Origin: Pseudomonadota bacterium
Lineage (GTDB): Bacteria; Pseudomonadota; Gammaproteobacteria; JAKAQQ01
Length of the DNA stretch: 25,235 nucleotides
Assembly (NCBI GenBank): GCA_021852325.1
Contig: JAJZNM010000003.1
Location: forward strand, 1-25,235
Direction: 5' to 3'
Shown here one piece after another: positions 5,839 to 24,925 of the stretch (its first letter is position 1; each line of letters opens with the position of its first letter). A program made the translations under genes and the position numbers. A model generated the notes under the pieces. The model was not told the DNA's origin. It ran no database searches and saw nothing but the letters and a program-made list of their open reading frames with translations.

Positions 5839-5868
5839 TTGAGTGAACAGTGCTTTTCCGGCTATAGT
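5839..5868 (+). promoter_or_regulatory. Candidate sigma70 promoter for the oxygenase operon
   Basis: TTGAGT (5839-5844), 18 nt spacer, TATAGT (5863-5868), 44 nt upstream of ATG 5913. RBS GGAG at 5904-5907. Confidence 0.4.
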
Positions 5869-5912: not shown

Positions 5913-6593
5913 ATGGCTGTTAAAGCTCAATCCGACCCGATCTCCTTCGACGAAACTGTCGAAGTGCACTACCCGACGACCGTTCTCGAACGACGCCATC
6001 ACGGATGCGGGGATTTGAACGCGGCACTGTACACGCTGCTCAAAAGCCTGGCAGAAACCAACCGCAGCGACCATCGCGAGAACGCCATCTACTCGGGACG
6101 AATCTCGACACAAGGCGGATACCAGACCGCAAAGCACAGGAATTTCCTGGAACGGACCGATGCAGCTGTAGTTACCCTCCGGGAGAGAATCATCCTGCCC
6201 GCTGCAGCACACTACCTAACCCAGGTTTTTGGCCCCCCGGCGTCCAGTCTCAGGCCCTGGCTCATGGGTTGGGCCAACTTTCTCACGGCAGGGGACTGGC
6301 AGGCTCCCCATATGCATCCCACTCCGGGGAACCTCGCGAGTGGGGTCTACTATGTCCGCCTGCCCGAAGGCCGGGAGCCGCCCCAGGGTTGGATCGAGTT
6401 CTTGAACCCCCATCCCATCTCCGTCCACCACGGATTCACACTCACCCGTCGCCTTGAACCCGAGGAAGGGAAATTGCTCCTTTTCCCGCCCTATCATATC
6501 CATTATGTGCATCCCTTCCGGTTGCCCGGCGAGCGTGCGATCATTGCTTTTGACTTGCTCCGTGAACGGCCCAATCTTGATCTCACATTCTGA
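5913..6593 (+). CDS. TIGR02466-like putative 2OG-Fe(II) oxygenase (copy 1)
   Basis: Family-typical WANF...GDWQAPHMHP (HxH), LASGVYYV, EFLNPHP, EGKLLLFPPYHIHYVHP and RAIIAFD. Confidence 0.8.
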   Translation: MAVKAQSDPISFDETVEVHYPTTVLERRHHGCGDLNAALYTLLKSLAETNRSDHRENAIYSGRISTQGGYQTAKHRNFLERTDAAVVTLRERIILPAAAHYLTQVFGPPASSLRPWLMGWANFLTAGDWQAPHMHPTPGNLASGVYYVRLPEGREPPQGWIEFLNPHPISVHHGFTLTRRLEPEEGKLLLFPPYHIHYVHPFRLPGERAIIAFDLLRERPNLDLTF

Positions 6594-7963
6594 TGCAGGA
6601 ATCCCGGCCCATGAATAAAAACGTCACCCCAGCCGCGCTCGGACAGAACATCGAGGACTACCCGATTGCAGAACTGCCGGACCAGATTGCTCTGCTCACA
6701 AACTGCGCCGAGGTGCTGGTTCGGGATGGTCGGCTTGAAGACGCGGAAAAGATCTACCGCCGCATCCTGGAAGCTGCTCCCCATCATTTGCCGGCTATGA
6801 CGTTCATTGCGATGCGGGCCTACGAAGCCGGAAATCTGGAAGAAAGCCTGCGTCACCTTCAGGCCGCGATTCGCGTCAATTCCAAGAGTTCCCAGCTGCA
6901 GGAAAACCTGGCCATAGTCCGACGCAGTCAGGGGCTGCCCGAAAATGCCCTTGAAGCGATCGACCGCGCAATCCAGATCAACCCCGAGCGTGCTGCGGCA
7001 CACCTTCACCGGGGAATGATCCTCGAGGATCTGGGAAGGGCCCATGAGGCGCTGCGGTGCTACGGAAAAGCCTTGACCCTCGAGCCCGTCTTGCGGACCA
7101 GTCCGGCGACACAGCCACCCGGAATCCAGAAACTGGCGGCGCATGCCATCGGTCGGCTCGCTCCACTCCGTCTGGCTGCCATTTCCAAGGCAGCACAGGA
7201 GGTCGAAACGCTCTTTGAGTCCAAGCTGCCGGAACGGGCACACCGGTTTCTCGACATTTTCAAGGGGTTGACGCCCCCATCCTATGAAGATCCGGAGCAG
7301 CACCCCGACTTTCTTTTTTATCCCGGCCTCAATCCCAAACCCTGGTTTGAACGTGGGGAGTTCCCCTGGGTCAAGGCTTTCGAGGCCGAAACACCGGGCA
7401 TCCTGGCGGAATACCAGGCGCTCGTTTCGGAAAACCGCGCTGCCACACCGGAGCAGCCGTACGTCCCGGAAGGAGCCCGGCAGAGCCCGATCTGGAAAGA
7501 TCTGGCGGGATCGCTCGATTGGAGCAGCTACCACCTTTACCGTTCCGGAAATCCGGTCCCTGGCATCATCCAACGCTGCCCCCGAACCTTTTCGGCGCTC
7601 AAGCATTTGCCACTCGCGCGCGGACAATCCCATGCACCAGAGATTTTTTTCTCCATCCTGAAACCCGGTACACACCTCCCGCCGCATCATGGCCTGTCAA
7701 ATGCCAAGCTCACCGTCCATCTGGGACTTGGAATTCCGGATCGCTGCGGCATCATGGTCGGTGGCGAGACGCGCCAGTGGCGTGAGGGTCGGGTACTGGT
7801 TTTCGACGACAGCTTCAAGCATGAGGCGTGGAACGCGAATACGGCCACACGTGTTGTCCTGATCGCAGACATCTGGAATCCTGCACTGACCCCAATCGAA
7901 CAGGAACTCGTCGCCCGCGTGATCGATGCACATGACACCTTCAGCCGGGAATATTTCTCCTGA
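6593..7963 (+). CDS. TPR-repeat protein with C-terminal aspartyl/asparaginyl beta-hydroxylase (Asp_Arg_Hydrox) domain
   Basis: N-terminal TPR-like repeats (GRLEDAEKIYRRILEAAP, GNLEESLRHLQAAIRVNS, LGRAHEALRCYGKALTLEP). C-terminal FSILKPGTHLPPHHGLSN..LTVHLGL, W.EGRVLVFDDSFKHEAWN and RVVLIADIWNP. TGATG overlap with the upstream gene. Confidence 0.88.
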   Translation: MQESRPMNKNVTPAALGQNIEDYPIAELPDQIALLTNCAEVLVRDGRLEDAEKIYRRILEAAPHHLPAMTFIAMRAYEAGNLEESLRHLQAAIRVNSKSSQLQENLAIVRRSQGLPENALEAIDRAIQINPERAAAHLHRGMILEDLGRAHEALRCYGKALTLEPVLRTSPATQPPGIQKLAAHAIGRLAPLRLAAISKAAQEVETLFESKLPERAHRFLDIFKGLTPPSYEDPEQHPDFLFYPGLNPKPWFERGEFPWVKAFEAETPGILAEYQALVSENRAATPEQPYVPEGARQSPIWKDLAGSLDWSSYHLYRSGNPVPGIIQRCPRTFSALKHLPLARGQSHAPEIFFSILKPGTHLPPHHGLSNAKLTVHLGLGIPDRCGIMVGGETRQWREGRVLVFDDSFKHEAWNANTATRVVLIADIWNPALTPIEQELVARVIDAHDTFSREYFS

Positions 7964-7987
7964 ACCCGATGCACCGAGGACCCGCAA

Positions 7988-8098
7988 ATGATCTCGACTG
8001 AACATGCCCTGAGGGCCGATCGTCTTCTGGCCGGAGCAGCGGGTTCTCCGGAAGATCCAGTGCCGGGCCATGCTAGGAGCCTCGAACGGTGGCTGTGA
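7988..8098 (+). CDS. Putative 36-aa small ORF, MISTEHALRADRLLAGAAGSPEDPVPGHARSLERWL (below the ORF-track cutoff)
   Basis: GAGGA at 7976-7980, 7 nt before ATG 7988, with TGA at 8096-8098. It fills the only sizeable gap in an otherwise coupled operon and overlaps the next GTG start by 10 nt. No homology is recognised. Confidence 0.3.
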   Translation: MISTEHALRADRLLAGAAGSPEDPVPGHARSLERWL

Positions 8099-8823
8099 GC
8101 CCCCCACGAACGACAAGAGGCCTGGAGTCAATTTTCGCCAGCCCGTTCTACCGTACCCAGCTGCCCAACTCGGAGGCATTCAATCTGAGGCTCAAACGCC
8201 ATTTGATTGAATGGGAGACCGCTCCACCCGCAAACGATCAGACACGACCCAGTCCGGTCCGCAAGCATAACGTCTTTGAGAGCGCATTCGACTTTTTTTA
8301 CTGGGATGATCCCGACGTCCAGTCCCTGGCCCAGTTCTGTCTCAATCACCTCGGCCATCTGATTCAGACGCTCAATGGCTACACGATGGAAGAGATGGCC
8401 GAGTTGCGCATCTACCACCACAGCTGGTTCCACCTGACCCGCCAAGGTGGCTACACGAGCTACCATCATCATCCCATGGCCTCCTGGTCAGGGGTGTACT
8501 GTGTCGACCCGGCCCTGTCCAATACAGCCCCCCCGGCCAGTGGCGTGCTCCGTTTCTTTGATCCCAGGGTGAATGTGGGCATGTTCGTCGACCCTGGCAA
8601 CAGCTATCTGGATTCGCCTTATGCGTTTGGTGCACTCGAACACATCTTCCAGGCGGGTGAACTGGTGCTGTTCCCGTCCTATCTCTACCATGAAGTGAGC
8701 CCCTACACGGGCAGCGGCATCCGCATCACGGTTGCCTTCAACGCCTGGGTGCGTTACCAGGATGAACCTGCACTCGCCCCCGGTTACCGTCGCGTACGCC
8801 AGACCCCAAGCTCTCCGGGTTGA
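8089..8823 (+). CDS. TIGR02466-like putative 2OG-Fe(II) oxygenase (copy 2)
   Basis: SWFHLTRQGGYTSYHHHP (HxH), SWSGVYCV, LRFFDPR, GELVLFPSYLYHEVSP and RITVAFN. RBS AGGAG at 8075-8079 precedes GTG 8089. Confidence 0.82.
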   Translation: MAVSPPRTTRGLESIFASPFYRTQLPNSEAFNLRLKRHLIEWETAPPANDQTRPSPVRKHNVFESAFDFFYWDDPDVQSLAQFCLNHLGHLIQTLNGYTMEEMAELRIYHHSWFHLTRQGGYTSYHHHPMASWSGVYCVDPALSNTAPPASGVLRFFDPRVNVGMFVDPGNSYLDSPYAFGALEHIFQAGELVLFPSYLYHEVSPYTGSGIRITVAFNAWVRYQDEPALAPGYRRVRQTPSSPG

Positions 8824-8838
8824 GTGGCCGGAGCATAC

Positions 8839-10137
8839 ATGGACCCGGCCTCGATGCATCTTTCAACCCCCAGTCCGGAATTGGGGCAGGCCCTTGATGC
8901 CCTGAAAAACCGCGATTTCAGCCAAGCCCATCGTCGCCTGCTCGAGATGGCCGGCCGGGGACAAACCGATGCCATGGGCTATCTTGGCATGCTCTACCTC
9001 CGCGGGCTTGGAATACCCTATGATCCCACCCAGGCCTACCATTGGACTGAACAGGCTGCCCGGGAAGGCAACGGGACTGCACTCTTGGCATTGGCCAACC
9101 TCGTCTACCTCGGCCTGGGAACACTGCGCGATCCCGAACGTGCCAAAGCAGTTCTGCTGGCAGCTGCCCGCACGGGGAATTCCGCAGCGCTACGCACGCT
9201 TGGCCTCGTCTATCTCGGACTCGGGGCCAACTGGCATCAGGCAGCCATCACCTGTTTCGAGGCGGCCGCCACACTCCGCGACGTCTTCGCCACGCACGCT
9301 TTGAGTGTCATCCGGCTCGGCTTGGGACAAATCGATTTGGCACTGCCCATCCTGTCCTGGGCAGGAACACAGGGATTGTTCCCCAGCCTCCTGCGGCTCA
9401 AAAACCTCCAGCACCAGCTTGGCATCTCCACCGTCCGAGACCTGGCGATTCTCCCACCGCAATATCCGGACCGCCCCCATCTGCGAACCATCATTCCTTT
9501 CGAATGGGAAACCCGATCAGCGGGATCAACCACTGAGTGTGACACCCGCATCGCACTTCGCATCGGCACAGACCTGCTTCATCCCATTGAGTGCGACTAC
9601 CTGATCGCCCTTGCAGCACCGCATCTCCGACCTGCCGAAACCCAAGAGCCCCATACGGGCCGCATCATCAAAAACCCGGTCCGGACATCGAGCGCCATGA
9701 ATTTTCCGCCCAATCTCGAAGACCTCATCTTGATGCGGCTCGAAGAACGGATTGCGTCATTCGCCGGGCAGCACCTGGAGCGGGCCGAGGCACTGGCGGT
9801 ACTCCGCTACCGTCCGGGTGAAGAATACCGGCCACATTACGACGCATTCGACCCCGAGACCTGCAAACGGGATCCAGAATGTATCCGCCTGGGACAACGC
9901 ACCGAAACGGTGCTCACCTACCTCAATGATGGATTTACAGGTGGCGCGACCGATTTCCCCACACTGCAACAAACGATTGAATCCCGATCCGGGCAGGTTG
10001 TCGCTTTTCGCAATCTCGATGCCTCGGGGAACCGCATGCCGCTTGCGCTACATGCCGGATTGCCGGTACAAAGTGGAGAAAAATGGCTGGCCACGCTCTG
10101 GTTCCGCGAACGCCCGGGCGCAAGGAGTATGGGGTAG
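8839..10137 (+). CDS. Sel1-like-repeat protein with C-terminal prolyl 4-hydroxylase-type 2OG-Fe(II) oxygenase domain
   Basis: Sel1-like repeats (AMGYLGMLYLRGLG, ALLALANLVYLGLG, ALRTLGLVYLGLG). P4H-type motifs V.NPVRTS, YRPGEEYRPHYDAF (HxD), TVLTYLND.FTGGATDFP and LHAGLPVQSGEKWLATLWFRE (distal His, 2OG-binding Lys). ATG 8839 follows GGAG; an alternative GTG lies at 8824. Confidence 0.87.
   Translation: MDPASMHLSTPSPELGQALDALKNRDFSQAHRRLLEMAGRGQTDAMGYLGMLYLRGLGIPYDPTQAYHWTEQAAREGNGTALLALANLVYLGLGTLRDPERAKAVLLAAARTGNSAALRTLGLVYLGLGANWHQAAITCFEAAATLRDVFATHALSVIRLGLGQIDLALPILSWAGTQGLFPSLLRLKNLQHQLGISTVRDLAILPPQYPDRPHLRTIIPFEWETRSAGSTTECDTRIALRIGTDLLHPIECDYLIALAAPHLRPAETQEPHTGRIIKNPVRTSSAMNFPPNLEDLILMRLEERIASFAGQHLERAEALAVLRYRPGEEYRPHYDAFDPETCKRDPECIRLGQRTETVLTYLNDGFTGGATDFPTLQQTIESRSGQVVAFRNLDASGNRMPLALHAGLPVQSGEKWLATLWFRERPGARSMG
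9099..9225 (+). repeat. Intragenic Sel1 repeat duplication visible at DNA level
   Basis: cctcgtctacctcggcctggg (9099) and cctcgtctatctcggactcggg (9204) are 105 nt (35 codons) apart, both encoding LVYLGLG. Confidence 0.65.
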
Positions 10138-10814
10138 GCTTCATGCCTTCCAGCATGTTCGAGATAGACACGGGCCTCGGACGCCCGCGCTGGCCTTGAA
10201 GTCGGTCGGCAGTCCATTGCTGAGGAATGGGCGACCGCGTTACCGATCGTACAGCATTTGATGTTGCCCAAAGGGATCTGGGGCCACTCCCTCCCGAGTG
10301 CGGCCATGCGGATGAGAGCAAAAACCTTCCTGAAGTGGAACCGTCGATCGGATGCGCCAGCCACACTTATTTTGACAAGGCCCTCCCGATATATCAGCAC
10401 GAGACCGATTTTGGGTCCCATCATGACCCGCTGACCACCGGTTCGCAAACTGCCCATGTGCCCGTTCCAGGCATCGGAGCAATGGTCGGGTGTGAGTCCC
10501 CAACGCCCACTCTGCGGCGCTAATCGATCACCCGGATGATCAGCAGCTGGAGTGCCAGAAACCATTCTGGGTGACCCGGCACCACGCCAAAGGATTGACG
10601 ACCTTTCCTCGTATTTTCCCAACCCGGTTCCTCAACCCATGGCACAGGAATCAGGTTTCCAAGGCTCTTGTGCCTCCGTGAACAGATTTGTGGGACCTTG
10701 ATCCACATCGCATCCATCCGGGCGAGAGTCGGTGGATCGGCGAGCCCTGATCCGGAGTGGAAGCGCCAGCATGGCCCTTCACTTTCTGGCGCGCACGTCC
10801 GTTCAGACAAAGAC

Positions 10815-10846
10815 AAAAAACCCGTGGTTCCTTGCGGAACCACGGG
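10815..10846 (-). terminator. Intrinsic terminator downstream of the TonB-dependent receptor
   Basis: Perfect 11-bp stem CCCGTGGTTCC/GGAACCACGGG (10821-10846) with a 4-nt loop, followed by T6 on the minus strand, 31 nt after the stop codon. Confidence 0.9.
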
Positions 10847-10877
10847 CAGTGTTCTTTTGTTGTCGTTGTTGGATTTT

Positions 10878-13800
10878 TTAGAAGCGCACGCCTACACGGG
10901 CATAGAAGAACCGGCCCGGGACCCGATAGTAAAACGGCTGATAGCTATTCGCGAAAGCCGTCATCGAAATCGGCGGATTCCTGTCGAAGAGGTTCCGGAT
11001 TCCGAAGGTAACATCGGTATTCCAAGCATCCACGTCGTAGGTGACCTGGATATCGTTGTAGACGGTCGTTCCGAGCTCGTTCAAGCCCTTGACCACATAC
11101 GGATCATGCAACTGCTGTGGCGTCTGAAGAATATCACCACACCAGCCAGTCCCGACCTGCGGCAGAATGAAGTCAGCCACGATACCCGAGTTCTGGCACT
11201 GTTCCCACATGGGACCAATCAGCTCCATCGACCAAGCTGCCGACCACGGACCATAGCTCCACTGCAGGACGGCATTTGCGCGGTGCTTCGGAATGAGTCC
11301 CGTCACCGTTCCTGCTTCTTCCTGGGTGAACTCCGTCGGCAAACCAGTCTGGGCATTCAGGCCCACAAAGGAATTGACGAACGTCTTCGTAAATGTGGCA
11401 TTCACGTCCAGCTTGAAGTCGCCGATCGGAGTCGATGGGAAGCGGTAACCGGCATTGATGTCCCAGCCATCCGTCTTGAGTGAGCCCACATTTGCGTTGA
11501 GCGACAGGATATTGGTGATTGATCCAGGCGTGTTGTAGGTTGCGCCATTCCGCTGGATATCACTGCAATAGAGCCCGACCGAACTGTAACAGCTGTCGAG
11601 AATCGTCTGCGGTCCCACTCCACCCGCGGTAATCGCATTCACCAGCTCGATCTTGTAGAAATCGGCGGAAATGTCAAAGCCGGGGATGTAAGACGGACTG
11701 TAGACGAATCCAATCGTGCGCGAGATCGACCGTTCCGGAGTCATGTGGGCGTTTCCGCCGACCGTGACCGGAATCTGGCCGAGCGGCTGGATCGCCGTGG
11801 CCGGGCAGTTTGGCAGCGGGTGTCCCGACCTGATCGAAGCCGGGCAGGGATCGGTCAACGGGTCAAAAGACTGTGCCTGACCCGCGAAGAACTCGCTGAT
11901 CGATGGCACCCGGAACCCCTGCGACCAGCTGCCGCGGAAGAGCAGGCTACGGATCGGGGCATACTTGAATGCGATGCGTCCCGACGTGTTGGTGGCCCGG
12001 CTGCCGACCGGCGTCGTGGGATTGGCAAATCCCGCCCACGTCGCCTGGGTCCAGCGGTTCGCGATGTCTACCGACAGGTGATGGACCAGGAATACATCGC
12101 GCACCAAGGGCACGTTGACTTCGATGTATTCGGCATCGCTCGCCTCCCGGCCACTGGTCGGGAATGATGTGTTCGTCGTTGCATTGCCTGAGGCCACGAG
12201 CGGATCGGGAGTGAAGTAGCCATTGTCTTCCAGGTACTCATAGCCCACGGCGACACCGAGCGGTCCGGCTGGCAGGTCGACGAGTGTGCCCGTCAGGTTG
12301 CCGGAATAGTCGCGCTGCGTGATGGCATCCTCGCTCACGCTGGTGTAGTCGATGTAGTTGGCCATGGCCGGCGTGATCGTGCCTTGCCCGGTCTGGAGGT
12401 CATATCCGCCAAAAAGATCAAGCGGGACGCAGCCCGGCGTGCTTTGGCAGATGTTGAGAGGTCCCAGGGCCAAGGCGAGACGGGAGGTGTTCTGGAGACC
12501 CGTGGTCTTGAAAATCACGTCGCGATTGGCATATCCGTAGTGGACGTTCCAATCCCAGTCATGGCCGAGCATCCGGAAGTAACCCTTGAAGCCCATCCCG
12601 AAACCAAAGGTCCGCTTGTTCGAATCGAATACACGGTACCCGGATTCAATCATGCGGCGGCCCAGGAAGAACAGGGTGTCACTATGGGTCGCGCAGTTCG
12701 CTGTGCCATAGAGAGAGCACCATTGCGCCGCGCCGGCCGCACCACTATACGGCACGAGATCAACGCCGAACGGGTTATAGGGGTTCGTGGCCGAGATACC
12801 CACCTTGATCCCATTGTTCGAGTCATCCGACCCGAACACACCAAGGAACAGTGGATTCGGTGCGAGGGTGCTCACCGACGTGTTGTCGTTGTAGAGCACG
12901 TTCGTATCGAACTGGAGGTGTGAGTTGAAACGGTAGTGGGCCTGTGAATAGGCATACCACTGTTCCGACGGGGTCATGAGATAGTTCGCCGGGGCGTAAT
13001 TATAGGCTTCGGAAGGCGAGAACGGCTGCGGATTCGCATGTGGGCCATTCAGCGGGCCTGCGATATCGTAAAGCCCCGAAGTCGTTCCAAACGGCTGCGA
13101 AGTGACCGTGGGATACGGATTGACTGGTCCTGCGTAGATGAAGCGGCCGCCGGGCGTGCCGGAGCTGCCCGCCTCATTACCGGTGCCGATGATCGGCAAT
13201 TGGGAAAGCGTCCGGTTGCCAGCCCAGATCGGCTGCTGTTCCCGGTAGCCGACCGACAGCAAGGCCCCTGCACGGCTGTTGCTCGCTCCCAGGGTAAAGC
13301 TGTATTCCTGGACCTTGCCGTCCCAGTGGTTGCTGCTGCTGATCGGCTGGGCCAGGCCCAATCCCGCCGGGACGGAGGCATTGTGCCCTTGGTAGATGCC
13401 CATGTAGGCACTGGCTTCGGCTCCATTGAAGTTCTGCACGGTGATGATGTTGATCACCCCGGCAATCGCATCCGATCCATAAATCGGTGATGCGCCATCG
13501 AGCAACACTTCCACGCGCTCGATGATCGCAGCCGGGATCGTATTGAGGTCGACGGAACCACCCAGAGTCGGAATCCAGCGGTGTCCATTGAGCAGGACGA
13601 GAACCCGCTGTGAGCCCAGGTTGTGCAGGTCAACGAACGTGTCGCCGTCATTTCCGTTGTTGGTCTGCGTATTGATGGCTGCGCCAGCCGATGTGATCGA
13701 CTGGAGAATGTTGCCAATCGTGACCTCGCCAGTCAGATTGAGTTGCTGTTTCGTGAGAACCACAACCGGCTGTGCGGTGACCGTACTCGTTCGCATGATG

Positions 13801-13940
13801 CGCGAACCCACGACCTCGATTTTGGCGAGCTTCGTGGTATTGCTTGCGGCCAGCGCTGCCGGTGCGGCGACGACTCCTGCAGACGCGCCGGCGATGAGCG
13901 CCCCGCGTACTGCTTGCCGCACAAGATTTCTCTGTTTCAT
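10878..13940 (-). CDS. TonB-dependent outer-membrane receptor (1020 aa), Cys-rich loops
   Basis: Signal peptide MKQRNLVRQAVRGALIAGASAGVVAAPAALA, TonB-box region KIEVVGSRI, plug motifs LHNLGSQRVLVLLNGHR and IERVEVLLDGASPIYGSDAIAGVINIIT, and C-terminal GIRNLFD...PGRFFYARVGVRF ending in Phe. Start reassigned from 14264 to ATG 13940, with GGAGG 10 nt upstream. Confidence 0.95.
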   Translation of the reverse strand: MKQRNLVRQAVRGALIAGASAGVVAAPAALAASNTTKLAKIEVVGSRIMRTSTVTAQPVVVLTKQQLNLTGEVTIGNILQSITSAGAAINTQTNNGNDGDTFVDLHNLGSQRVLVLLNGHRWIPTLGGSVDLNTIPAAIIERVEVLLDGASPIYGSDAIAGVINIITVQNFNGAEASAYMGIYQGHNASVPAGLGLAQPISSSNHWDGKVQEYSFTLGASNSRAGALLSVGYREQQPIWAGNRTLSQLPIIGTGNEAGSSGTPGGRFIYAGPVNPYPTVTSQPFGTTSGLYDIAGPLNGPHANPQPFSPSEAYNYAPANYLMTPSEQWYAYSQAHYRFNSHLQFDTNVLYNDNTSVSTLAPNPLFLGVFGSDDSNNGIKVGISATNPYNPFGVDLVPYSGAAGAAQWCSLYGTANCATHSDTLFFLGRRMIESGYRVFDSNKRTFGFGMGFKGYFRMLGHDWDWNVHYGYANRDVIFKTTGLQNTSRLALALGPLNICQSTPGCVPLDLFGGYDLQTGQGTITPAMANYIDYTSVSEDAITQRDYSGNLTGTLVDLPAGPLGVAVGYEYLEDNGYFTPDPLVASGNATTNTSFPTSGREASDAEYIEVNVPLVRDVFLVHHLSVDIANRWTQATWAGFANPTTPVGSRATNTSGRIAFKYAPIRSLLFRGSWSQGFRVPSISEFFAGQAQSFDPLTDPCPASIRSGHPLPNCPATAIQPLGQIPVTVGGNAHMTPERSISRTIGFVYSPSYIPGFDISADFYKIELVNAITAGGVGPQTILDSCYSSVGLYCSDIQRNGATYNTPGSITNILSLNANVGSLKTDGWDINAGYRFPSTPIGDFKLDVNATFTKTFVNSFVGLNAQTGLPTEFTQEEAGTVTGLIPKHRANAVLQWSYGPWSAAWSMELIGPMWEQCQNSGIVADFILPQVGTGWCGDILQTPQQLHDPYVVKGLNELGTTVYNDIQVTYDVDAWNTDVTFGIRNLFDRNPPISMTAFANSYQPFYYRVPGRFFYARVGVRF

Positions 13941-13996
13941 TTGTTGATAGCCTCCACATGTGCTGAGGTGATAATGCTCCTGGCGCGACCAGGATT

Positions 13997-14030
13997 GTGG
14001 TGAGCATACCACTTTCAACCCTGCTGTCAA
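13997..14030 (-). promoter_or_regulatory. Candidate sigma70 promoter of the receptor, with a palindrome over the -10
   Basis: TTGACA (14030-14025), 16 nt spacer ending in TGG, then TATGCT (14008-14003). The palindrome GTGGT-N6-ACCAC (13997-14012) overlaps the -10. Confidence 0.6.
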
Positions 14031-14047
14031 GCCTTGGCGCGGAGCAT

Positions 14048-14080
14048 AAAAAAAACTCCGTCCAATGAGTCCGGACGGAG
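14048..14080 (-). terminator. Intrinsic terminator upstream of the receptor promoter
   Basis: Minus-strand CTCCGTCC(G)-loop-(T)GGACGGAG, an 8-bp stem plus a G-U pair, followed by T8. Confidence 0.8.
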
Positions 14081-14148
14081 CACATCGCCAGCTTTGTGTG
14101 TTCAATACAACAATAATGCTTGTTGCTAACACGCGACAGTCCTCAAAT

Positions 14149-14157
14149 TGGTACAAT
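14149..14157 (+). promoter_or_regulatory. Candidate extended -10 promoter for the sulfotransferase operon
   Basis: TGG-TACAAT at 14149-14157, ~70 nt upstream of ATG 14228. No good -35 element. Confidence 0.35.
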
Positions 14158-14227
14158 CGCCAACGGCATGCGGTGAATCGCAGCCCGAGATTCCACCCTC
14201 CAGCCCCAGGACTGTGCCCGTATTCGC

Positions 14228-15769
14228 ATGAATGAGCCACCGCCGCCCGGTTCAGCGCCCGCATTTCCCACTGAGGGGGTCCTGGTCGATGCCAGTACGT
14301 CTTACGAGCTGGGAAATGAGCTACGGAGGCAAGGCGACCCTGTCAGCGCAGAGGCCGCGCTCCGTGAGACGCTGCGCTTGGCGCCGGATCACTTCGAGGC
14401 CCGCACAAGCCTTGCCTTCCTCTACCTGGAACTAGATCGAAAAGACGAGGCGGCACGGTTATACCGTGACTGGCTTGCATCCGGCCCCAAAGACGGGACC
14501 CGACTCGTGAAGGTCGCCCTTTTCCTCGAAGGAATCCAAGAAGGGGGCCTCGCCTTGGCCTGCCTGGAACGTGCCACGGAACTGGCACCCGGCCTGGGGG
14601 CAGCTTGGTTTCACCGGGGACGCCTGCACTTCCAATCGGATCGAATCGACTCGGGCACCGCATACTTCGAGCAAGCACTTCAAAACGACCCGGATCTCGG
14701 TACCGCCTTTCTTCAGTTGTCCCACGCACGGCACTTCCGGTCCCGGCGGGATCCCTTGATCGACTTCTTCATGGCTCAGGCGACTGATCCCAAGCGCCCG
14801 GAATCAACCCGGGCCTGTTTCGAATTTGCACTGGGCAAGATCTGGGATGATCTTGAGGAATGGGACCAGGCCCTCCAATGGGTCGAGACGGCCAACGCGA
14901 TTCGCCGCAAGACCATACGATTCGATCCCGATCGATGCCGAAGCCTGCTTCGCGAACGCCTCGTCGCGCCCCACCGCGTCTGGGCACCCTCCACTCTCCT
15001 ACCTCGGGAGGAGGTGGAACCGCTGTTTATCGTCGGCCTCCCGAGAAGTGGTTGCACGTTCATCGAGCAAGTCCTCCTCGAACACCCCGCCATCCGCAGC
15101 GCCGGGGAACTGCCGATGCTCCCTGCTCTCGTCCAGGAAACCCACCTCGTCGAACGCTGGCGTGAAGCTGATCAGGCTGGAGCCCCCCCCTCAGATGACG
15201 AACTCGAAGCCCTCCGGGCCTCCTATCGTGAGGTCCTGATGCGTTCGATCCCGCCTCCCACCTCGGGTGAGTCCACGCGCTATGTGATCGACAAGAACCC
15301 GCTCAATTTCTTTCATGTGGGCGTGATCCGGAGGCTTTTTCCACACGCACCCATACTGGCACTGGAACGCGATCTCCGGGATGTGCTGATTTCACTCTAC
15401 TTCCACGATTTCACCCATCCTGATCTCGCATTCACCTACTCCATCGATCACCTGCTTTTCTTTTTCCGCTGTCACGAAACGCTCATGCCGTTGTGGAAGG
15501 CCATTACCGCCGGCCATCTTCGTGCCATCCGCTATGAAACGCTCGTGGCCGAACCCGCCACCGTCGTCCAGGCAGTTCTGCGCTTTCTCGCACTGCCAGC
15601 AACCGGTGAGGCTGGAACACGCTTGTCTGCACCGAATATCATTGCCCGTGCCCATGCCTGGCAGGCCCGACAGCCGATCTATGGCCGTGCCCCAAGACAC
15701 TGGGAACACTATGCACCGGGATTGCTCAGGCTCTATCCCGAACTTCGCTCCATCGGGTTTGGCCCATGA
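14228..15769 (+). CDS. TPR-repeat sulfotransferase (copy 1, divergent motifs)
   Basis: N-terminal TPRs, 5'-PSB loop IVGLPRSGCTFIEQVL, DKNPLNF, 3'-PB RDLRDVLISLY, YETLVAEP and WQARQPIY. Confidence 0.85.
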   Translation: MNEPPPPGSAPAFPTEGVLVDASTSYELGNELRRQGDPVSAEAALRETLRLAPDHFEARTSLAFLYLELDRKDEAARLYRDWLASGPKDGTRLVKVALFLEGIQEGGLALACLERATELAPGLGAAWFHRGRLHFQSDRIDSGTAYFEQALQNDPDLGTAFLQLSHARHFRSRRDPLIDFFMAQATDPKRPESTRACFEFALGKIWDDLEEWDQALQWVETANAIRRKTIRFDPDRCRSLLRERLVAPHRVWAPSTLLPREEVEPLFIVGLPRSGCTFIEQVLLEHPAIRSAGELPMLPALVQETHLVERWREADQAGAPPSDDELEALRASYREVLMRSIPPPTSGESTRYVIDKNPLNFFHVGVIRRLFPHAPILALERDLRDVLISLYFHDFTHPDLAFTYSIDHLLFFFRCHETLMPLWKAITAGHLRAIRYETLVAEPATVVQAVLRFLALPATGEAGTRLSAPNIIARAHAWQARQPIYGRAPRHWEHYAPGLLRLYPELRSIGFGP

Positions 15770-17610
15770 GCCGTGAGCCGATCCCGCGCCTCCCGCGTCC
15801 AGTCCTCGAACGCGGACTCCGCGAGGCCATCCAGCTTATGCAAAAGGGTCGGCACGAGGCAGCAGATCGTGAGTTCAACATGCTCTTGCGTTACGGTGTC
15901 GAATTTCCTCCACTCCTGCATTTCGCAGGATTGAACTGCCTGGAGATGGGTCACACCGAGATGGGATTGGAGCTTTTGAAACGTTCGGTCGCGCTTGCTC
16001 CCACGGACCGGGCCTTTCAAGGTAACCTGGCCACTGCCTTGGTCCGGCTACACCGCTGGCAGGAAGCGGAAACACTGCTTCGCGTCCTTCGGAATGAGGA
16101 TCCGCAGGATCCCATGATTGCCTTCAATCTGGCGAACCTTCTGCATCTGACCGAACGGGACGGGGAAGCACTGCCCCACTGGCAGGTGGCCGTAAACCGG
16201 GCACCCGACTGGGCACCCGGCTGGCTCGGCTTGGGGGAAAGCCTTACCGAACTCAACGATCTTAAAGCTGCCGACCAGGCCTATGCCCGTGCCCAGGCGC
16301 TACGGCCACGGGATCCGCTCATCCCCACTGCACGGGCGGAACTGTGGTCCCTAGAAGAAGAAAACGGCACACGGGCCCAATCGTTCTACAGCGTGGCGCT
16401 CAAGGTCGAACCGGGATTCCCGCCGGCCATCATGGGTCTCGCCGCGCTCGAAGGACAGATGGGACAGTTCGACCGGGCACTCGAGCGCCTGCGAACATTG
16501 CTCAGCCGGCAGCCGGGCGCCTATGCCGCAGCCTGGCTGCTGGCGCGATTCAAGTCCCATGCAGCAGACGGTCCAGACAGCAAACTCATCGAGCGTTCGA
16601 TGGAGCACGCCCATCACGAACCCGAGCATCCCCTGGCATACCATGCTTTTTTCGCCTGGGGCAAGGTCCTCGAAGACCGGTACGAATACGATCGGGCCTG
16701 GGCCGCCTTCGAGCGTGGACAGGCCTTGCGTCCACACACCTCGACCAATGCTGAAACGGAACAACGCCAGTACATGCGGCTCATCCTGGAAGCGGTCGAT
16801 CACCGATTCATCGAGAGGCACCGCTTTCTTCATCCCGGCCCTGTCAATCCCATCTATATCGTGGGCATGCCGCGTTCGGGAACCACTCTCGTGGAACAAA
16901 TGCTGTCCGCACATCCAGCCATCACGGGTGGCGGAGAGATGACGGCACTGCACAACTGCTTCCGCCATGCGCTCGGTCTGCCGGATCTCGGCCAGTTGCC
17001 CTTCGTCTTGAATCCGCTCTCGCCCGTCGCCTGGAAGAAGCTGCGCGCCGACGTCGACCAGCTCCATGCCGCCTCTGCCCATGGCAAACCCAATCTCACG
17101 GACAAGATGCCCACCAACTTCATGTTTCTGGGACTGCTTCATGCCCTTTCCCCCAATGCGCGGATCATTCACGTCATGCGTGATGCCCGTGACACCTGTG
17201 TTTCGTGTTACACGACCCTCTTCCGGACCAGTCACAAGTTCGCCACCAACCTCGAACACCTCGGGCATTACTACCGGATGTATGAGACTCTGATGGAACA
17301 TTGGCGACAACAGCTGCCACCGGACATGCTGATCGAAATCCGCTATGAATCCCTGGTACGGAATCCGCGCGAAGCACTTGTACGTCTTCTAGATGCCCTG
17401 GGGCTTCCCTTCGAGGAGGCTTGCCTGAAACCGGAACAAACCGGACACCGCATCAAGACGGCAAGCGTCTACCAGGCCCGCCAGCCGATACGCACCGACT
17501 CGGTGGCTCGCTGGCAACGTTACGCCGCCCATTTGGGTCCACTGGAGAGGGCGCTTGCCATCACCGACCCACTGGGCCGGTCGGGCCTTGCCGAAACCCA
17601 CCCGCTATAA
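15766..17610 (+). CDS. TPR-repeat sulfotransferase (copy 2, canonical motifs)
   Basis: Multiple TPRs, IVGMPRSGTTLVEQML, TDKMPTNF, RDARDTCVSCY, YESLVRNP and KTASVYQARQPI. ATGA overlap with copy 1. Confidence 0.9.
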   Translation: MSREPIPRLPRPVLERGLREAIQLMQKGRHEAADREFNMLLRYGVEFPPLLHFAGLNCLEMGHTEMGLELLKRSVALAPTDRAFQGNLATALVRLHRWQEAETLLRVLRNEDPQDPMIAFNLANLLHLTERDGEALPHWQVAVNRAPDWAPGWLGLGESLTELNDLKAADQAYARAQALRPRDPLIPTARAELWSLEEENGTRAQSFYSVALKVEPGFPPAIMGLAALEGQMGQFDRALERLRTLLSRQPGAYAAAWLLARFKSHAADGPDSKLIERSMEHAHHEPEHPLAYHAFFAWGKVLEDRYEYDRAWAAFERGQALRPHTSTNAETEQRQYMRLILEAVDHRFIERHRFLHPGPVNPIYIVGMPRSGTTLVEQMLSAHPAITGGGEMTALHNCFRHALGLPDLGQLPFVLNPLSPVAWKKLRADVDQLHAASAHGKPNLTDKMPTNFMFLGLLHALSPNARIIHVMRDARDTCVSCYTTLFRTSHKFATNLEHLGHYYRMYETLMEHWRQQLPPDMLIEIRYESLVRNPREALVRLLDALGLPFEEACLKPEQTGHRIKTASVYQARQPIRTDSVARWQRYAAHLGPLERALAITDPLGRSGLAETHPL

Positions 17611-17631
17611 TTCAAGTTTGAGGCGAGATAT

Positions 17632-18105
17632 ATGATGGATCCATCCGAACCGAACGCAAGCACCGACCCGGACGAAACGAGTCTCGACCGAGCCATGGCT
17701 GCACTCACGGAGGAGTTGTCGACGCGGGAACGGGCACTCATTGAGTTCGTCCAAGCTCAGGTCTGGCTGCTCGCGGATCGCGAAACGGGATCGGACCCTG
17801 CCGCCCTGGCGAGCACACGCATGGGTCTCGTCTCGGACGGACCGCATCTCGACCAGGCGATGCTCGCCGTCTTCAGTACCCGGAGACGGGCCATCGCATT
17901 CCAGGGCGCACATGAGCGCAGCCTGCCCTGCATCATCGCGGTCGAAGCGCCCTTTGCGATCCTCTGTGTGCCGGAAGACTCCGGGATCATCATCAACCCG
18001 AACCAGAGTCCCGGTTTCCGGATCGGGCCTGAAGCCGCGCAGATGCTCAAGAACCAGATGATTGAACTGCAAAACCGCGGGTCGGCCGGCACCAGCCATC
18101 CGTAA
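17632..18105 (+). CDS. SseB-like protein (SseB N-terminal domain only)
   Basis: Pattern LDRAM....RERAL..FVQAQVWLL ... LAVFST ... GIIINPNQSPGFRIGPE resembles SseB-family proteins. GAGG RBS upstream and TAATG overlap with the next gene. Confidence 0.6.
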   Translation: MMDPSEPNASTDPDETSLDRAMAALTEELSTRERALIEFVQAQVWLLADRETGSDPAALASTRMGLVSDGPHLDQAMLAVFSTRRRAIAFQGAHERSLPCIIAVEAPFAILCVPEDSGIIINPNQSPGFRIGPEAAQMLKNQMIELQNRGSAGTSHP

Positions 18106-19832
18106 TGAACCGGCCCCACCTTTCCGACACCGCTATCGAGTCGCGCGCGCGGCTCTATGCATACATTGATGGATCGGAACTCGAACTTGCGGAAACCTTG
18201 TGCCAAAGCCTGCTGGGCAGCCAGATGGATGATCCGGAACTCCTCTACTTGTCCGGGGTCATTGCCCATAAAGCCGGGCATGCCCAAGAGGCCATCCAGC
18301 GCTTCCGCCAGGCGATCCCGCGCGCACCGACGCTGGAAAGCCGCGCGGCGTGCCTGATCGGGCTCGCAAAAGCCCATTGGATGCTGGAGCAGCTTGAGCA
18401 GGCACAGGCCGCTTTCGAAGAGGCCGGCCGGTTGCGGCCGGAACTGGCATCCACCTGGGTTTCGCTCGGTGCCGTCCACACAACCCTCGGGAATCCACTC
18501 GCTGCCGAGAGTTGCTTTAAGCGCGCGCTTGTGCTGGATCCGGATGAACCGGACGCGCTAACCGGGCTCGGACTCTGCCTGATGGATTTCGGACGCTATG
18601 CCGAAGCCCGGGCATCCCTGGAGCAAGTTCTCCAAAGATTTCCGGTGCATCCGGAGGCCGAGCAGGCACTTTGCACGCTCGATCGAATCACCGGAAACTT
18701 TGAAGCCGCAGAAAAGCGGCTGTTCGCACTGCTCAGCGAACACCCCGACCGCATGGGTTACGGTGACCTGGCTTCGATCAAAACCTTCAAGACTCCTGAC
18801 GACCCGAGGCTTGGCTTTCTGGAAAGTCGATACCAGTCCCTGCAGCCTGTAGTGACTCCGGAAGTGGTCCGGATTGATCTTATGTTTGGACTCGCCCGGG
18901 CCTATGACGATCTCGGAAGGCCTGAGGAAGCTTTCCCCTTGCTCGAAGCAGCCTCAAAGCTCAGACGCCGACATCTCAAGTTCGACCTCGCAACCGAAGA
19001 AGAACGCATGAAACGGATCGCCGGTATCTTCAGTCGCGTGTTCATCGAGCGATGCTGCCTTGATCACAACCCCTCGTCACCCCAGCCTCTTTTCATCGTG
19101 GGCCTTCCCCGTTCCGGTTCCACCCTGTTGGAACATATCCTGAGCGCTCATCCCGACATTGCAGCCAGCGGCGAACTCACGATTCTGCCCCGTCTGGCCG
19201 TCGGGCTCGGCGCGACCTGGGGTCGTGTGCCCGGGTTCCCCAACGCGCTCCCCGAAGCCCGCGCCAAGCGCGACCTCCAGGATTTCAGACTCCAGTATTT
19301 TCGTGAAATCGAAACGATGACCGGATACCAGCCTTCCGGCATATTCACCGACAAGCTGCTCGGTAATTTTCTCTTCATCGGGCTCATCCGAATGGCTTTC
19401 CCGGGCGCACACATCATACACATGCAAAGACATCCCCTGGATCAGGCTCTTTCCGCCTATCGCCAGCTTTTCACCCAAGGACATGCCTACACCTACGATC
19501 TCGAAGAGTTCGGGCATTACTTCATCGCCTACCAGAGACTCATGGCCCACTGGCGTGAAGTCGCCGGCGAGGCGATCTACGATCTCGCATATGAATCGCT
19601 GGCCAGTGACCCCGAACCGGAAATCCGGAAACTCATGGATTTCCTGGGTCTCCCTTTCGCCTCTGCGTGTCTCGCAACCGAGACCATCAGCCGCCCCGTG
19701 CGGACAGCGAGCGCGACCCAGGTTCGCGATCACATCCATCAGGATTCAATCGGGCACTGGAAGCACTACCGGATTCAGCTTGAACCCTTGCGGCAGATGC
19801 TGGGGCCATGGATCCCGCCCGAACCCAGCTGA
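18105..19832 (+). CDS. TPR-repeat sulfotransferase (copy 3)
   Basis: Multiple TPRs, IVGLPRSGSTLLEHIL, TDKLLGNF, RHPLDQALSAY, YESLASDPE and RTASATQVR. Confidence 0.9.
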   Translation: MNRPHLSDTAIESRARLYAYIDGSELELAETLCQSLLGSQMDDPELLYLSGVIAHKAGHAQEAIQRFRQAIPRAPTLESRAACLIGLAKAHWMLEQLEQAQAAFEEAGRLRPELASTWVSLGAVHTTLGNPLAAESCFKRALVLDPDEPDALTGLGLCLMDFGRYAEARASLEQVLQRFPVHPEAEQALCTLDRITGNFEAAEKRLFALLSEHPDRMGYGDLASIKTFKTPDDPRLGFLESRYQSLQPVVTPEVVRIDLMFGLARAYDDLGRPEEAFPLLEAASKLRRRHLKFDLATEEERMKRIAGIFSRVFIERCCLDHNPSSPQPLFIVGLPRSGSTLLEHILSAHPDIAASGELTILPRLAVGLGATWGRVPGFPNALPEARAKRDLQDFRLQYFREIETMTGYQPSGIFTDKLLGNFLFIGLIRMAFPGAHIIHMQRHPLDQALSAYRQLFTQGHAYTYDLEEFGHYFIAYQRLMAHWREVAGEAIYDLAYESLASDPEPEIRKLMDFLGLPFASACLATETISRPVRTASATQVRDHIHQDSIGHWKHYRIQLEPLRQMLGPWIPPEPS

Positions 19833-19843
19833 GTGTTTCCAGC

Positions 19844-21010
19844 ATGACCCGAGCCACGCATTCCGCTCCTCCTCAAACCCCTATTTTGCGCAATGGGCCC
19901 ATTGCGCGTTGGGTTCGGTCCCGCATCGAGAAAGCCGGCATTGTGCCTGCCGGCCCCAATCCGTGGGATATCGAGATCCGGGATGGACGCTTTTTCCACA
20001 AGGTGTTTTTTCAAGGAACGCTCGGCTTCGGGGAATCCTACATGGATGGCGACTGGGAGGCACCGGCACTCGACCGCTGTCTCGAAAGGCTGGTCGCCCA
20101 AGGCCTCGATGACCCCCCGGGACTGGCCCGGATCCTGGAGCGGGCGCGTACCCTGGCTGGCTGGCTCCTCAATCTCCAGAATCCACGGCGGGCCTTCGAA
20201 GTCGGACGGCGGCACTATGACCGCGGTCTCGACCTCTTCCAGGCCATGCTCGACCCGCAACTGATCTACAGCTGCGGCTACTGGAAAGAGGCCCGGACGC
20301 TCGAGGCGGCGCAGGAAGCCAAATGCGCGCTCATCTGCCGGAAACTCGGGCTCGCCCCGGGGCTGCGCCTCCTCGACATCGGATGCGGCTTCGGCGGTCT
20401 CGCCCGCTATGCCGCGGAACACTATGGGGTCGAAGTGCATGGCATCACGGTCTCGCGCCAGCAGTTCGAGTACGCAAAGACTCACACCGCGGATCTCCCC
20501 ATCCATTTCGAGATCCGGGATTACCGGGACCTCGATGGCACCTACGACCGGGTTGTCTCGGTCGGCATGTTCGAGCACGTGGGGGCCAGGAACTACCGGG
20601 CCTTCTTCGAGACCGTACACCGGGTGCTCCGACCGGAAGGGCTCTTTCTCCTCCATTCGATCGGCGGCAACCGCTCGCGGCAGCGCACCGATCCCTGGAT
20701 CGAGCGTTACATCTTTCCGAACAGTCTCGTGCCATCGGCCGCACAGATCACGCGCGCGTTCGAGAACCTGTTCGTCCTTGAGGACTGGCACAACTTTGGC
20801 GCCGACTACGAGAAGACCCTCAGGGCTTGGCACGACCGTTTTGAAGCGGCCTGGACGGCGCTCTCGAAAAGCTACGACGAGCGCTTTCACCGCATGTGGC
20901 GGCTTTACCTCCTGGCCAGTGCCGTCTCGTTCAAGCTCCGCAAGCTCCAGCTCTGGCAACTCGTCCTCTCGCCAACGGGCATCCCCGGCGGCTATCAAGC
21001 TCCACGCTGA
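19844..21010 (+). CDS. cfa: Cyclopropane-fatty-acyl-phospholipid synthase
   Basis: GTLGFGESYMDG, HYDRGLDLF, YSCGYW, SAM motif LLDIGCGFGG, SVGMFEHVG, WIERYIFP and F.RMWRLYL. An alternative ATG at 19808 overlaps the upstream gene. Confidence 0.92.
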   Translation: MTRATHSAPPQTPILRNGPIARWVRSRIEKAGIVPAGPNPWDIEIRDGRFFHKVFFQGTLGFGESYMDGDWEAPALDRCLERLVAQGLDDPPGLARILERARTLAGWLLNLQNPRRAFEVGRRHYDRGLDLFQAMLDPQLIYSCGYWKEARTLEAAQEAKCALICRKLGLAPGLRLLDIGCGFGGLARYAAEHYGVEVHGITVSRQQFEYAKTHTADLPIHFEIRDYRDLDGTYDRVVSVGMFEHVGARNYRAFFETVHRVLRPEGLFLLHSIGGNRSRQRTDPWIERYIFPNSLVPSAAQITRAFENLFVLEDWHNFGADYEKTLRAWHDRFEAAWTALSKSYDERFHRMWRLYLLASAVSFKLRKLQLWQLVLSPTGIPGGYQAPR

Positions 21011-21930: not shown

Positions 21931-21958
21931 CCTCGCGAGTCCCGGGCCATCGAACGCA

Positions 21959-23044: not shown

Positions 23045-23062
23045 GGCATGGGCCCGGATGGC

Positions 23063-24100: not shown

Positions 24101-24187
24101 GGTGACTCCGGGAATCAAATGTGGAGGGCTTCCGGCTGTCGGGTGTGGGGTGAGCCGGGCAAGCCGGCTCGCCCGATCGACCAGCCC

Positions 24188-24757: not shown

Positions 24758-24867
24758 GGATCGTCTCCCTCATTGATTCAAGGGCCGTCCGGTTCGGGGG
24801 CGGCAACCGTGTGCCCTCAACCGGGCGAGCCCGGGAAGAGCGACTCGGATGGGTACTCTACAGACTT

Positions 24868-24925
24868 GATCGATATAAATAAAATACATCTTTATAATAT
24901 TATCTATATATAATATCTATATTAT
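24868..24925. promoter_or_regulatory. AT-rich divergent promoter and LysR operator region
   Basis: Extremely AT-rich tract in a GC-rich genome. T-N11-A boxes (e.g. 24898-24910 and 24874-24886) and a direct repeat TATCTATAT at 24901 and 24914, between the divergent dsrE-like and lysR genes. Confidence 0.7.

Follow-up and report, generated by a model that had tools for sequence, protein, structure and literature searches.

We identified a module of tailoring genes around a TonB-dependent receptor gene at positions 5913-19832 of contig C121, part of a metagenome-assembled gammaproteobacterial genome (G000; 1.41 Mb assembled, 74% complete), and we refer to the whole 25,235-nt stretch of this contig as the window. 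For one of the encoded proteins, a homologue at 70% identity is classed under Gammaproteobacteria. The module is real, conserved, and horizontally mobile and has not been characterized experimentally. We read it, with a probability of roughly 0.4, as a cytoplasmic protein-modification module that acts on a polypeptide tied to an outer-membrane beta-barrel, the leading candidate being the precursor of the receptor. A polypeptide substrate is favored because the relatives of the enzymes are of protein-modifying type, because the enzymes are fused to solenoids and accompanied by a chaperone-sized SseB-like partner, and because receptor and enzymes have been duplicated together (contig C54, and genome G002); the lack of a linked synthetase, precursor, exporter, or permease and the existence of variants with plugless barrels point the same way. 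The more specific proposal, in which the outer-membrane beta-barrel belonging to the module (the receptor here, a plugless barrel in other variants) is hydroxylated and sulfated as a cytoplasmic precursor ahead of export, is tentative and rather doubtful.

All 9 genes listed in the first-pass annotation were confirmed in place by Pfam, comprising 4 Fe/2-oxoglutarate (2OG) oxygenases, 1 receptor, 3 sulfotransferases with tetratricopeptide repeats (TPR), and 1 SseB-family gene. The left arm, on the forward strand, consists of oxyA (5913-6593; a PF13759/TIGR02466-like Fe/2OG oxygenase of 226 aa without signal peptide), TPR-AspH (6593-7963; a TPR solenoid and an Asp/Asn beta-hydroxylase-type oxygenase, 456 aa, or 450 aa from the ATG at 6611), oxyB (8089-8823; a second PF13759/TIGR02466-like oxygenase, 244 aa), and Sel1-P4H (8824-10137; Sel1 repeats and a PF13640 oxygenase of the prolyl 4-hydroxylase [P4H] type, 437 aa). 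The receptor gene lies in the center on the reverse strand (10878-13940), and the right arm, again on the forward strand, holds ST1 (14228-15769, 513 aa), ST2 (15766-17610, 614 aa), a gene for a cytoplasmic SseB N-domain family protein (17632-18105, 157 aa), and ST3 (18105-19832, 575 aa), with ST1, ST2, and ST3 encoding TPR-fused sulfotransferases of the 3'-phosphoadenosine 5'-phosphosulfate (PAPS)-dependent type. The arms had been described as 2 translationally coupled operons, and stop and start codons do overlap or abut at 4 junctions (oxyA/TPR-AspH, TGATG; oxyB/Sel1-P4H, adjacent; ST1/ST2, ATGA; SseB/ST3, TAATG), but gaps of 125 nt before oxyB and 21 nt before the SseB-like gene interrupt the coupling. 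TPR or Sel1 solenoids were present in 5 of the 7 enzymes, and a signal peptide was found in none of the 8 soluble proteins, from which the enzymes and the SseB-like protein are predicted to be cytoplasmic. An adenosine 5'-phosphosulfate kinase gene elsewhere in the genome could supply PAPS for the sulfotransferases. With 7 enzymes and an SseB-like gene, this instance is among the most elaborate of its kind.

Judged by similarity searches, the closest solved relatives of 3 enzyme classes in the module are enzymes that modify proteins, namely human AspH, collagen-type P4H, and tyrosylprotein sulfotransferase (TPST). TPR-AspH matched PF05118 (E 2e-43; 148 bits against a cut-off of 22.6) in addition to TPR, and its oxygenase domain matched human AspH at E 3e-32. 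The AlphaFold2 model (pLDDT 94) was used in a Foldseek search, in which the top 10 Protein Data Bank matches were all human AspH "oxygenase and TPR domains" with approximately 470 columns aligned; the global TM score against human AspH was approximately 0.4, the inter-domain angle being different, and the oxygenase domain alone reached TM 0.81 (rmsd 2.9) against 5apa. The histidine motifs of the family, PHHG and FDDSF(K/E)H, are conserved, and we take their histidines to be iron ligands by comparison with human AspH. An N-terminal TPR region is joined to the oxygenase domain, as in the human enzyme. The best NCBIfam matches of the AspH domain were OlsC (9e-29) and LpxO (2e-16), both far below cut-off.

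The catalytic part of Sel1-P4H matched the P4H of Chlamydomonas (2jig, 2.5e-22), that of Bacillus anthracis (3itq, 4e-20), and human collagen P4H alpha-2 (7zsc, 1.8e-19), and an iron triad with a basic 2OG residue was read from its sequence as H338-x-D340, a distal His in LALHAG, and a Lys in GEKW. Assignment to the PiuC/YbiX/CciO type was rejected, as none of the 4 oxygenases had an NCBIfam match of the PiuC/YbiX type and the best structures for the P4H-like enzyme were collagen-type P4Hs. The remaining 2 oxygenases belong to PF13759 (oxyA, E 9e-15; oxyB, E 8e-18). Orthologues of oxyA in the family loci were 57-81% identical, and its match to TIGR02466 fell below the cut-off of that family; oxyB matched weakly to the uncharacterized structures 2rg4 and 3bvc, to which the structural matches of both PF13759 enzymes were limited. 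Our literature search found no paper characterizing the PF13759 family.

Each of the 3 sulfotransferases carries N-terminal TPR and a PF13469 domain (ST1, E 4e-34; ST2, E 6e-44; ST3, E 2e-42). TPST-type motifs were identified in all 3, including G(L/M)PRSG(C/T/S)T, GE after HP.I, DK..NF, and R(D/H)..D...S.Y, with the 5'-phosphosulfate-binding loop kept in ST1 (GLPRSGCT) and in ST3; the residues presumably have the catalytic and PAPS-binding roles seen in the TPST2 structure. The best solved relatives of ST2 were protein-tyrosine sulfotransferases (1.8e-14 and 5e-12), with approximately 226 residues aligned end to end and the TPST2 motifs matched, followed by the sulfotransferase (ST) of CurM (1e-9), whose acceptor is a hydroxyacyl-acyl carrier protein (ACP). 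The first-pass annotation had the left arm creating hydroxyls that the right arm sulfates. The pairing of oxygenases with sulfotransferases, and a fusion of the 2 domain types in locus L033, are compatible with this scheme, but its order is unproven and the sulfotransferase domains are TPST-like with motifs kept. Since these enzymes resemble tyrosine sulfotransferases, prior hydroxylation would not be required, and since CurM ST sulfates a beta-hydroxyl, hydroxylation followed by sulfation may still apply.

The SseB-like gene had a weak Pfam match (E 0.006); the ESM Atlas gave 0.94 with 207 features in common, and homologues carry PF07179. Its alignment (A2) contains the conserved motifs VSDG..Q.MLA.F and GI.INPN, and across loci the gene is always located between 2 sulfotransferase genes. 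The AlphaFold2 model of the protein (pLDDT 84) gave a weak Foldseek match to the hypothetical protein 2z0r (E 3e-3), too weak for a function to be assigned to the fold. Homologues of the TPR-sulfotransferases were identified in 98 of the 401 genomes sampled from the class, and approximately 35 of 40 examined were orphans with unrelated neighbors. Across this class sample, their neighborhoods were heterogeneous, with no recurrent partner except other TPR proteins, and the family as a whole therefore yields no clue to the substrate. One orphan TPR-sulfotransferase copy of 570 aa was present per genome of the GTDB family to which the source genome belongs, f1 (L162 and L163).

In the receptor, Pfam identified a plug (E 2e-18) and a barrel (E 8e-24), and a signal peptide and the TonB box KLAKIEVVGSRI were read from the sequence. 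We corrected its start to the ATG at 13940 from 14264, giving a protein of 1020 aa. Against solved transporters, the match was confined to the plug, with BtuB as the best, whereas clade members located in modules elsewhere were 44-79% identical. All 10 receptor cysteines are invariant in the clade, and 8 of them are shared with the outgroup. Module receptors have a disulfide loop, W-C-x-L-Y-G-x-x-N-C (12693-12722, residues 407-416), that the nearest enzyme-less receptors lack, and 5 invariant tyrosines are clade specific; we count neither the loop nor the tyrosines as evidence of modification.

The enzymes were found with this receptor clade well beyond the source genome, as the first-pass annotation had supposed, in at least 3 GTDB families and between differing flanks. 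Within family f1, the whole block is syntenic in 4 further genomes, including the sucA and cfa flanks. A second, smaller module in the source genome (contig C54; L021:1-7243) has a receptor paralogue that is 69% identical, cut by the contig end, and divergent from ST1-like and ST2-like genes, and in its counterpart in G002 (L016, G002:C77) the receptor paralogue is accompanied by TPR-AspH as well. In L029, a TPR-AspH 41% identical to the one described here is part of a module of like kind, but with guaAB flanks, and in L033, a 34% identical relative belongs to a rearranged receptor module beside exbB-exbD-tonB, where a 609-aa fusion of an AspH-type oxygenase domain and a PF13469 sulfotransferase domain is encoded (L033:11354-13183). 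Genomes G091, G169, and G321 also carry the receptor clade with enzymes.

Receptors at least 48% identical were identified in 8 genomes from 3 families of the class sample, and the enzymes were present at 8 of the 10 receptor-clade loci, against a chance expectation of approximately 0.03 such coincidences, a rough estimate from the density of sulfotransferase matches. Some of the loci are related by descent, which brings the number of independent cases closer to 4 or 5 (at least 3 families, plus L029 and the metagenome loci). The 2 enzyme-less copies (G005:C30 and G091:C15) come from genomes with a full module elsewhere, and receptors with 38% identity or less in the class sample had none of the enzymes nearby. 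A metagenome scan with the receptor alignment returned 80 homologues, 28 of them with a sulfotransferase, PF13759 oxygenase, AspH, or P4H nearby; 7 of the metagenome loci carry the module at 41-47% receptor identity, and a minimal trio recurs, in which the receptor is followed by a PF13759 oxygenase and then by a convergent TPR-sulfotransferase. A profile search of genome contigs with the AspH alignment returned the same family only, its patterns being too specific. The enzyme module tracks the receptor clade and not the genomic neighborhood, the flanks being sucA and cfa in family f1 and guaAB in L029. The 2 arms travel together, are joined in the AspH-sulfotransferase fusion of L033, and recur in the minimal trio, from which they very probably act on one substrate, in agreement with the functional link first proposed for them. 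The G+C content is 0.58-0.62 inside the block (window 6000-20000) and 0.64-0.68 in the flanks, which, together with the differing genomic contexts in other lineages, is consistent with horizontal acquisition.

We also identified clusters in which the receptor is replaced by a small barrel. In one such receptor-less cluster (L031/L032), a TPR-AspH relative 40% identical to the one described here is preceded by a gene for a 330-aa protein (P0073), the one small-barrel sequence in which a signal peptide was read. In the ESM Atlas, P0073 grouped (0.98) with barrels of approximately 330 aa that lack a plug and are labeled "TonB-dependent receptor family", and its homologues carry PF00593; the small-barrel assignment follows from these PF00593 matches and from the Atlas. 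Six further members were 35-51% identical (L156-L161), with barrels ranging from approximately 280 to 380 aa. In all 7 loci, the barrel gene directly precedes enzyme genes, encoding PF13759, (Sel1-)P4H, or PF13640 oxygenases, TPR-sulfotransferases, or TPR-AspH with a TPR-methyltransferase. No full receptor was called within 7 kb on each side of these loci (less at contig ends), comparison of the small barrel with the C-terminal strands of the receptor by hhalign gave no significant homology, and no small barrel was found in the source genome as far as assembled. Since a plugless barrel precedes the enzymes in 7 of 7 receptor-less loci, the constant partner of the enzymes appears to be an outer-membrane barrel rather than energized import.

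A conserved open reading frame (ORF) of 58-65 aa lies upstream of and divergent from the barrel gene in 5 of these loci (L157:25-198, L158:3209-3403, L159:5201-5392, L160:3149-3343, and L161:6323-6514, all on the reverse strand), with a hydrophobic N-terminal part, and a TTYTVxKAND..FP...C core with its C-terminal cysteine. Within this small-barrel subgroup, the ORF may encode a substrate peptide or else a small membrane protein. No homologue was found in the source genome or in any other of approximately 160 loci, so it cannot be a general substrate of such modules.

The substrate had been proposed to be peptidic, and this fits the solved relatives of the 3 enzyme classes; a linked precursor peptide was, however, not found in 9 module loci. 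An all-against-all comparison of these loci gave no conserved small ORF of at least 18 aa, only terminator-derived or chance matches. We considered 2 places for a precursor and rejected both. The 36-aa ORF at 7988-8098 has no counterpart in the matching intergenic gap of relatives. The non-coding spacer of 740 bp between Sel1-P4H and the receptor gene (10138-10877), which ends in a strong hairpin terminator at approximately 10815-10850 behind the receptor gene, has no Pfam domain in any ORF; only the terminator is conserved in comparison with L011, and the counterpart of the spacer is only approximately 110 bp long in L012 and L013. ORF clustering of 36 module loci identified no recurrent inner-membrane transporter, exporter, or peptidase, the repeats being kin synteny or antisense artefacts, and no recurrent acyltransferase or lipid-synthesis gene. 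A conserved linked precursor and a linked leader peptidase or exporter, which would mark a cluster for a ribosomally synthesized and post-translationally modified peptide (RiPP), are both missing, and the option of a RiPP-like metallophore in the first-pass annotation loses ground with them.

That annotation had seen no trace of a nonribosomal peptide synthetase (NRPS), polyketide synthase (PKS), exporter, peptidase, or glycosyltransferase in the window, and Pfam and ORF domain scans of the window agree. A scaffold synthetase, as expected of a siderophore locus, was found neither in the cluster nor in the genomes searched, with PF00668 (NRPS condensation) and PF04183 (IucA/IucC) not found in G000 or in 4 relatives that are 94-96% complete; we put the size of the source genome at approximately 2 Mb, and genes for NRPS and NRPS-independent siderophore (NIS) synthetases were not found in it. 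Collagen-like or tail-collar substrates, a proposal of Iyer et al., were looked for in the same 5 genomes and rejected as not found, and an EGF-like protein was not found. Rfam identified no RNA families in the window.

Separate, conserved promoter-like sites of the sigma-70 type were identified for the receptor and for each of the arms. The promoter-like site of the hydroxylase arm (5839-5868, forward strand; TTGAGT, 18 nt, TATAGT) is conserved in 4 family loci (alignment A6), and its consensus and conservation suggest a promoter function. The promoter-like site of the receptor (14004-14031, reverse strand; TTGACA, 16 nt, TATGCT) is invariant in 6 loci (alignment A3), and the family retains a leader hairpin (13979-13993, reverse strand; 5 bp, CCTGG N5 CCAGG), which shows a compensatory change in L012. 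A further hairpin, followed by a T8 run on the minus strand (14048-14085), lies immediately upstream of this promoter; L011 and L012 lack it in the aligned region, and it is hence lineage specific. The promoter region of the sulfotransferase arm (14095-14140) contains repeated ACAAC/GTTGC half-sites (e.g., ACAACAATAATGCTTGTTGC) that are conserved in 5 family loci and are probably an operator for a regulator. Such half-sites were not seen upstream of the hydroxylase arm, and no operator common to both arms was seen in the conserved promoters. By eye, there was no convincing Fur- or Pho-like box in the aligned conserved promoters; no formal matrix scan was run. The 3 metatranscriptomes of the source study contained only scraps shorter than 50 nt from other organisms and no RNA of this organism. 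The sample came from mine drainage or tailings, the assembly and its origin being confirmed by the DNA runs.

The mechanism that we infer, including the polypeptide substrate, the receptor as that substrate, the role of the SseB-like protein, and the order of the reactions, would run as follows. The TPR and Sel1 solenoids would hold the unfolded polypeptide, the oxygenases would hydroxylate Asp/Asn, Pro, and other residues, and the TPST-like sulfotransferases would O-sulfate Tyr and/or hydroxyls with PAPS, with the SseB-family protein as a putative adaptor or holdase for the sulfotransferases. The substrate would be either the neighboring receptor in its precursor form or a different envelope protein from the same uptake pathway, and modification before Sec export would give a mature barrel with anionic or hydroxylated residues. 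A number of points weigh against this proposal. Protein modification by the module has so far been predicted and none observed, and we know of no case in which the precursor of an outer-membrane protein is hydroxylated or sulfated in the cytoplasm. Profile similarity also links the PF05118 domain to OlsC and LpxO, which are lipid hydroxylases, and the second-best sulfotransferase match, CurM ST, acts on an acyl-ACP hydroxyl. Two receptor-clade copies stand without enzymes, the large orphan share of the TPR-sulfotransferase homologues means that this family does not need a linked barrel, and the small barrel might just as well serve as a channel through which a small product passes.

An alternative product would be a small secreted metabolite, with a free amino acid or like primary metabolite hydroxylated and sulfated into a siderophore-like or signaling compound that the receptor re-imports, and we regard this as fairly unlikely. 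It is essentially the prediction made for 2OG-oxygenase/TonB-receptor neighborhoods in the text of Iyer et al. (PMC2938197), and methanobactin operons are reported to combine a TonB transporter with a sulfotransferase (PMC3621798). Receptor genes normally sit with genes for the imported compound, the minimal receptor/oxygenase/sulfotransferase trio suits a two-step small-molecule route, and CurM ST sulfates a hydroxyl, but the missing linked synthetase, exporter, and inner-membrane importer, the genome-wide failure to find NRPS or NIS genes, and variants that have a plugless small barrel only in place of the receptor all count against it, and solenoid fusions and protein-type relatives are hard to square with a free amino acid. 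Nor does a promoter set with no Fur-like box seen, from a mine-drainage habitat, favor a siderophore-like compound. Soluble iron is usually abundant in mine drainage.

Cargo processing, in which the receptor imports an external compound or peptide that the cytoplasmic enzymes then transform, so as to detoxify it, trap it, or release a nutrient from it, has been proposed for PiuC, YbiX, and CciO; for this module, we hold it to be distinctly unlikely. The functional dependence of CciT and CciO speaks for it, substrate transformation being among the models of its authors (PMC12004947), and the locus logic is like that of nutrient-uptake loci. However, an inner-membrane transporter recurs in 0 of the 36 module loci, the P4H-like enzyme is not a PiuC/YbiX orthologue, and some variants have a small plugless barrel where the receptor would be. 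It would also entail PAPS-dependent sulfation of an imported nutrient, which is costly and unusual. We consider improbable a RiPP-like product whose precursor gene lies outside the cluster or varies too much to be detected. In such a system, a leader would be read by the TPR region, and after export the product would reach the receptor for sensing or import. RaxST-RaxX of Xanthomonas is a bacterial precedent for TPR-fused tailoring enzymes and for a ribosomal peptide sulfated on tyrosine, and the 58-65 aa ORF beside the barrel gene would suit the idea within its own small-barrel subgroup, yet that ORF has no homologue in this genome or the other loci, the 9 module loci share no small ORF, the one at 7988 is not conserved, and no peptidase or exporter is linked.

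Envelope lipids are a very improbable target. In this explanation, the AspH-like enzyme would act in the manner of LpxO and OlsC and hydroxylate an acyl chain of either lipid A or an ornithine lipid, and the sulfotransferases would decorate lipids, as part of an acid-stress program with the downstream cfa gene; the OlsC and LpxO matches, the mine drainage or tailings habitat, and the overlap or abutment of cfa with ST3 in family f1 are in its favor. The cfa linkage is confined to that family, however, the AspH domain is nearer to human AspH in sequence and in two-domain build, TPR/Sel1 fusions and P4H/TPST relatives are unsuited to lipids, and no acyltransferase or lipid-synthesis gene recurs with the module.

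The block is flanked by sucA-sucB-lpd on the left and by cfa and a thiosulfate-type module on the right. The cfa gene (window 19808-21010) overlaps or abuts ST3, with a 4-nt overlap in L011, and is probably co-transcribed with the sulfotransferase arm in family f1 only. Beyond it, window 21033-25235 contains a YeeE-like gene (DUF6691/Sulf_transp), a DoxD-DoxA fusion, an SBP_bac_11 binding protein, a DsrE-like protein, and a divergent LysR regulator, and is a thiosulfate-type sulfur module unrelated to the receptor/enzyme block.

Under the favored protein-modification reading, the AspH/P4H/TPST trio of the animal secretory pathway would have a bacterial equivalent in the cytoplasm that acts on an envelope protein, an unreported class of bacterial post-translational modification. 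Modification of the own barrel, if true, would be the first of AspH, P4H, and TPST type on a bacterial outer-membrane protein, and could explain the dependence of TonB transporters on neighboring cytoplasmic dioxygenases (CciT-CciO, PiuA-PiuC, and Fiu-YbiX), a dependence of consequence for iron uptake and for the entry of cefiderocol. Should the module make a small sulfated metabolite instead, this would represent a new type of secreted compound made without NRPS or PKS. The module is widespread, compact, and experimentally tractable under either reading.

The substrates of human AspH are Asp/Asn residues in disulfide-bonded EGF-like domains, which it modifies inside a secretory compartment. 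Animal AspH, collagen P4H, and TPST1/2 have catalytic domains homologous to those of the module with motifs kept, and AspH shares the build of N-terminal TPR and C-terminal oxygenase; unlike these secretory-pathway enzymes, the bacterial ones are predicted to be soluble and cytoplasmic, without membrane anchor or signal peptide. CciT-CciO is the only experimental anchor for such loci: Caulobacter CciT strictly needs the adjacent cytoplasmic 2OG dioxygenase CciO, by a coupling mechanism that is not known (PMC12004947). In CciT-CciO, Fiu-YbiX, and PiuA-PiuC, too, an outer-membrane TonB transporter is coupled, genetically and functionally, to a cytoplasmic 2OG oxygenase from the PF13640 superfamily. 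These pairs serve iron uptake under Fur control, and each has just one oxygenase, which is not fused, and lacks a sulfotransferase, whereas the module described here has 4 oxygenases of 3 families and 3 sulfotransferases, its P4H is of collagen type, and no Fur-like box was seen. RaxST-RaxX and the methanobactin operons (MbnT and a sulfotransferase; PMC3621798) resemble it in a PAPS sulfotransferase acting on a ribosomal peptide and, in the methanobactin cluster, in a TonB transporter, but both are described as encoding a recognizable precursor, maturation enzymes, and an exporter, none of which is linked here.

The closest description is that of Iyer, Abhiman, de Souza, and Aravind (2010, NAR 38:5261, PMC2938197), a purely computational study whose text already reports such neighborhoods and proposes that hydroxyls are made and then sulfated; the first-pass annotation had noted broadly similar neighborhoods in Proteobacteria. 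Its text predicts amino acid-derived siderophore-like products for receptor loci, and co-encoded collagen-like or tail-collar proteins as targets of hydroxylation and sulfation. The loci described in that text, like the one here, combine several unrelated 2OG oxygenases (Syn9-gp52/54-like, and cognates of Pro/Asp/Asn beta-hydroxylases) with TonB-like receptors and sulfotransferases. In contrast, collagen-like or tail-collar proteins, which that text foresees, were not found here, and the SseB-like gene, the Sel1 fusions, and the plugless-barrel variants have no mention in it, figures and supplement aside. The kind of module is therefore not newly seen; what is new here are the protein-type relatives of 3 enzyme classes, the missing precursor, exporter, and synthetase, and the small-barrel variants.

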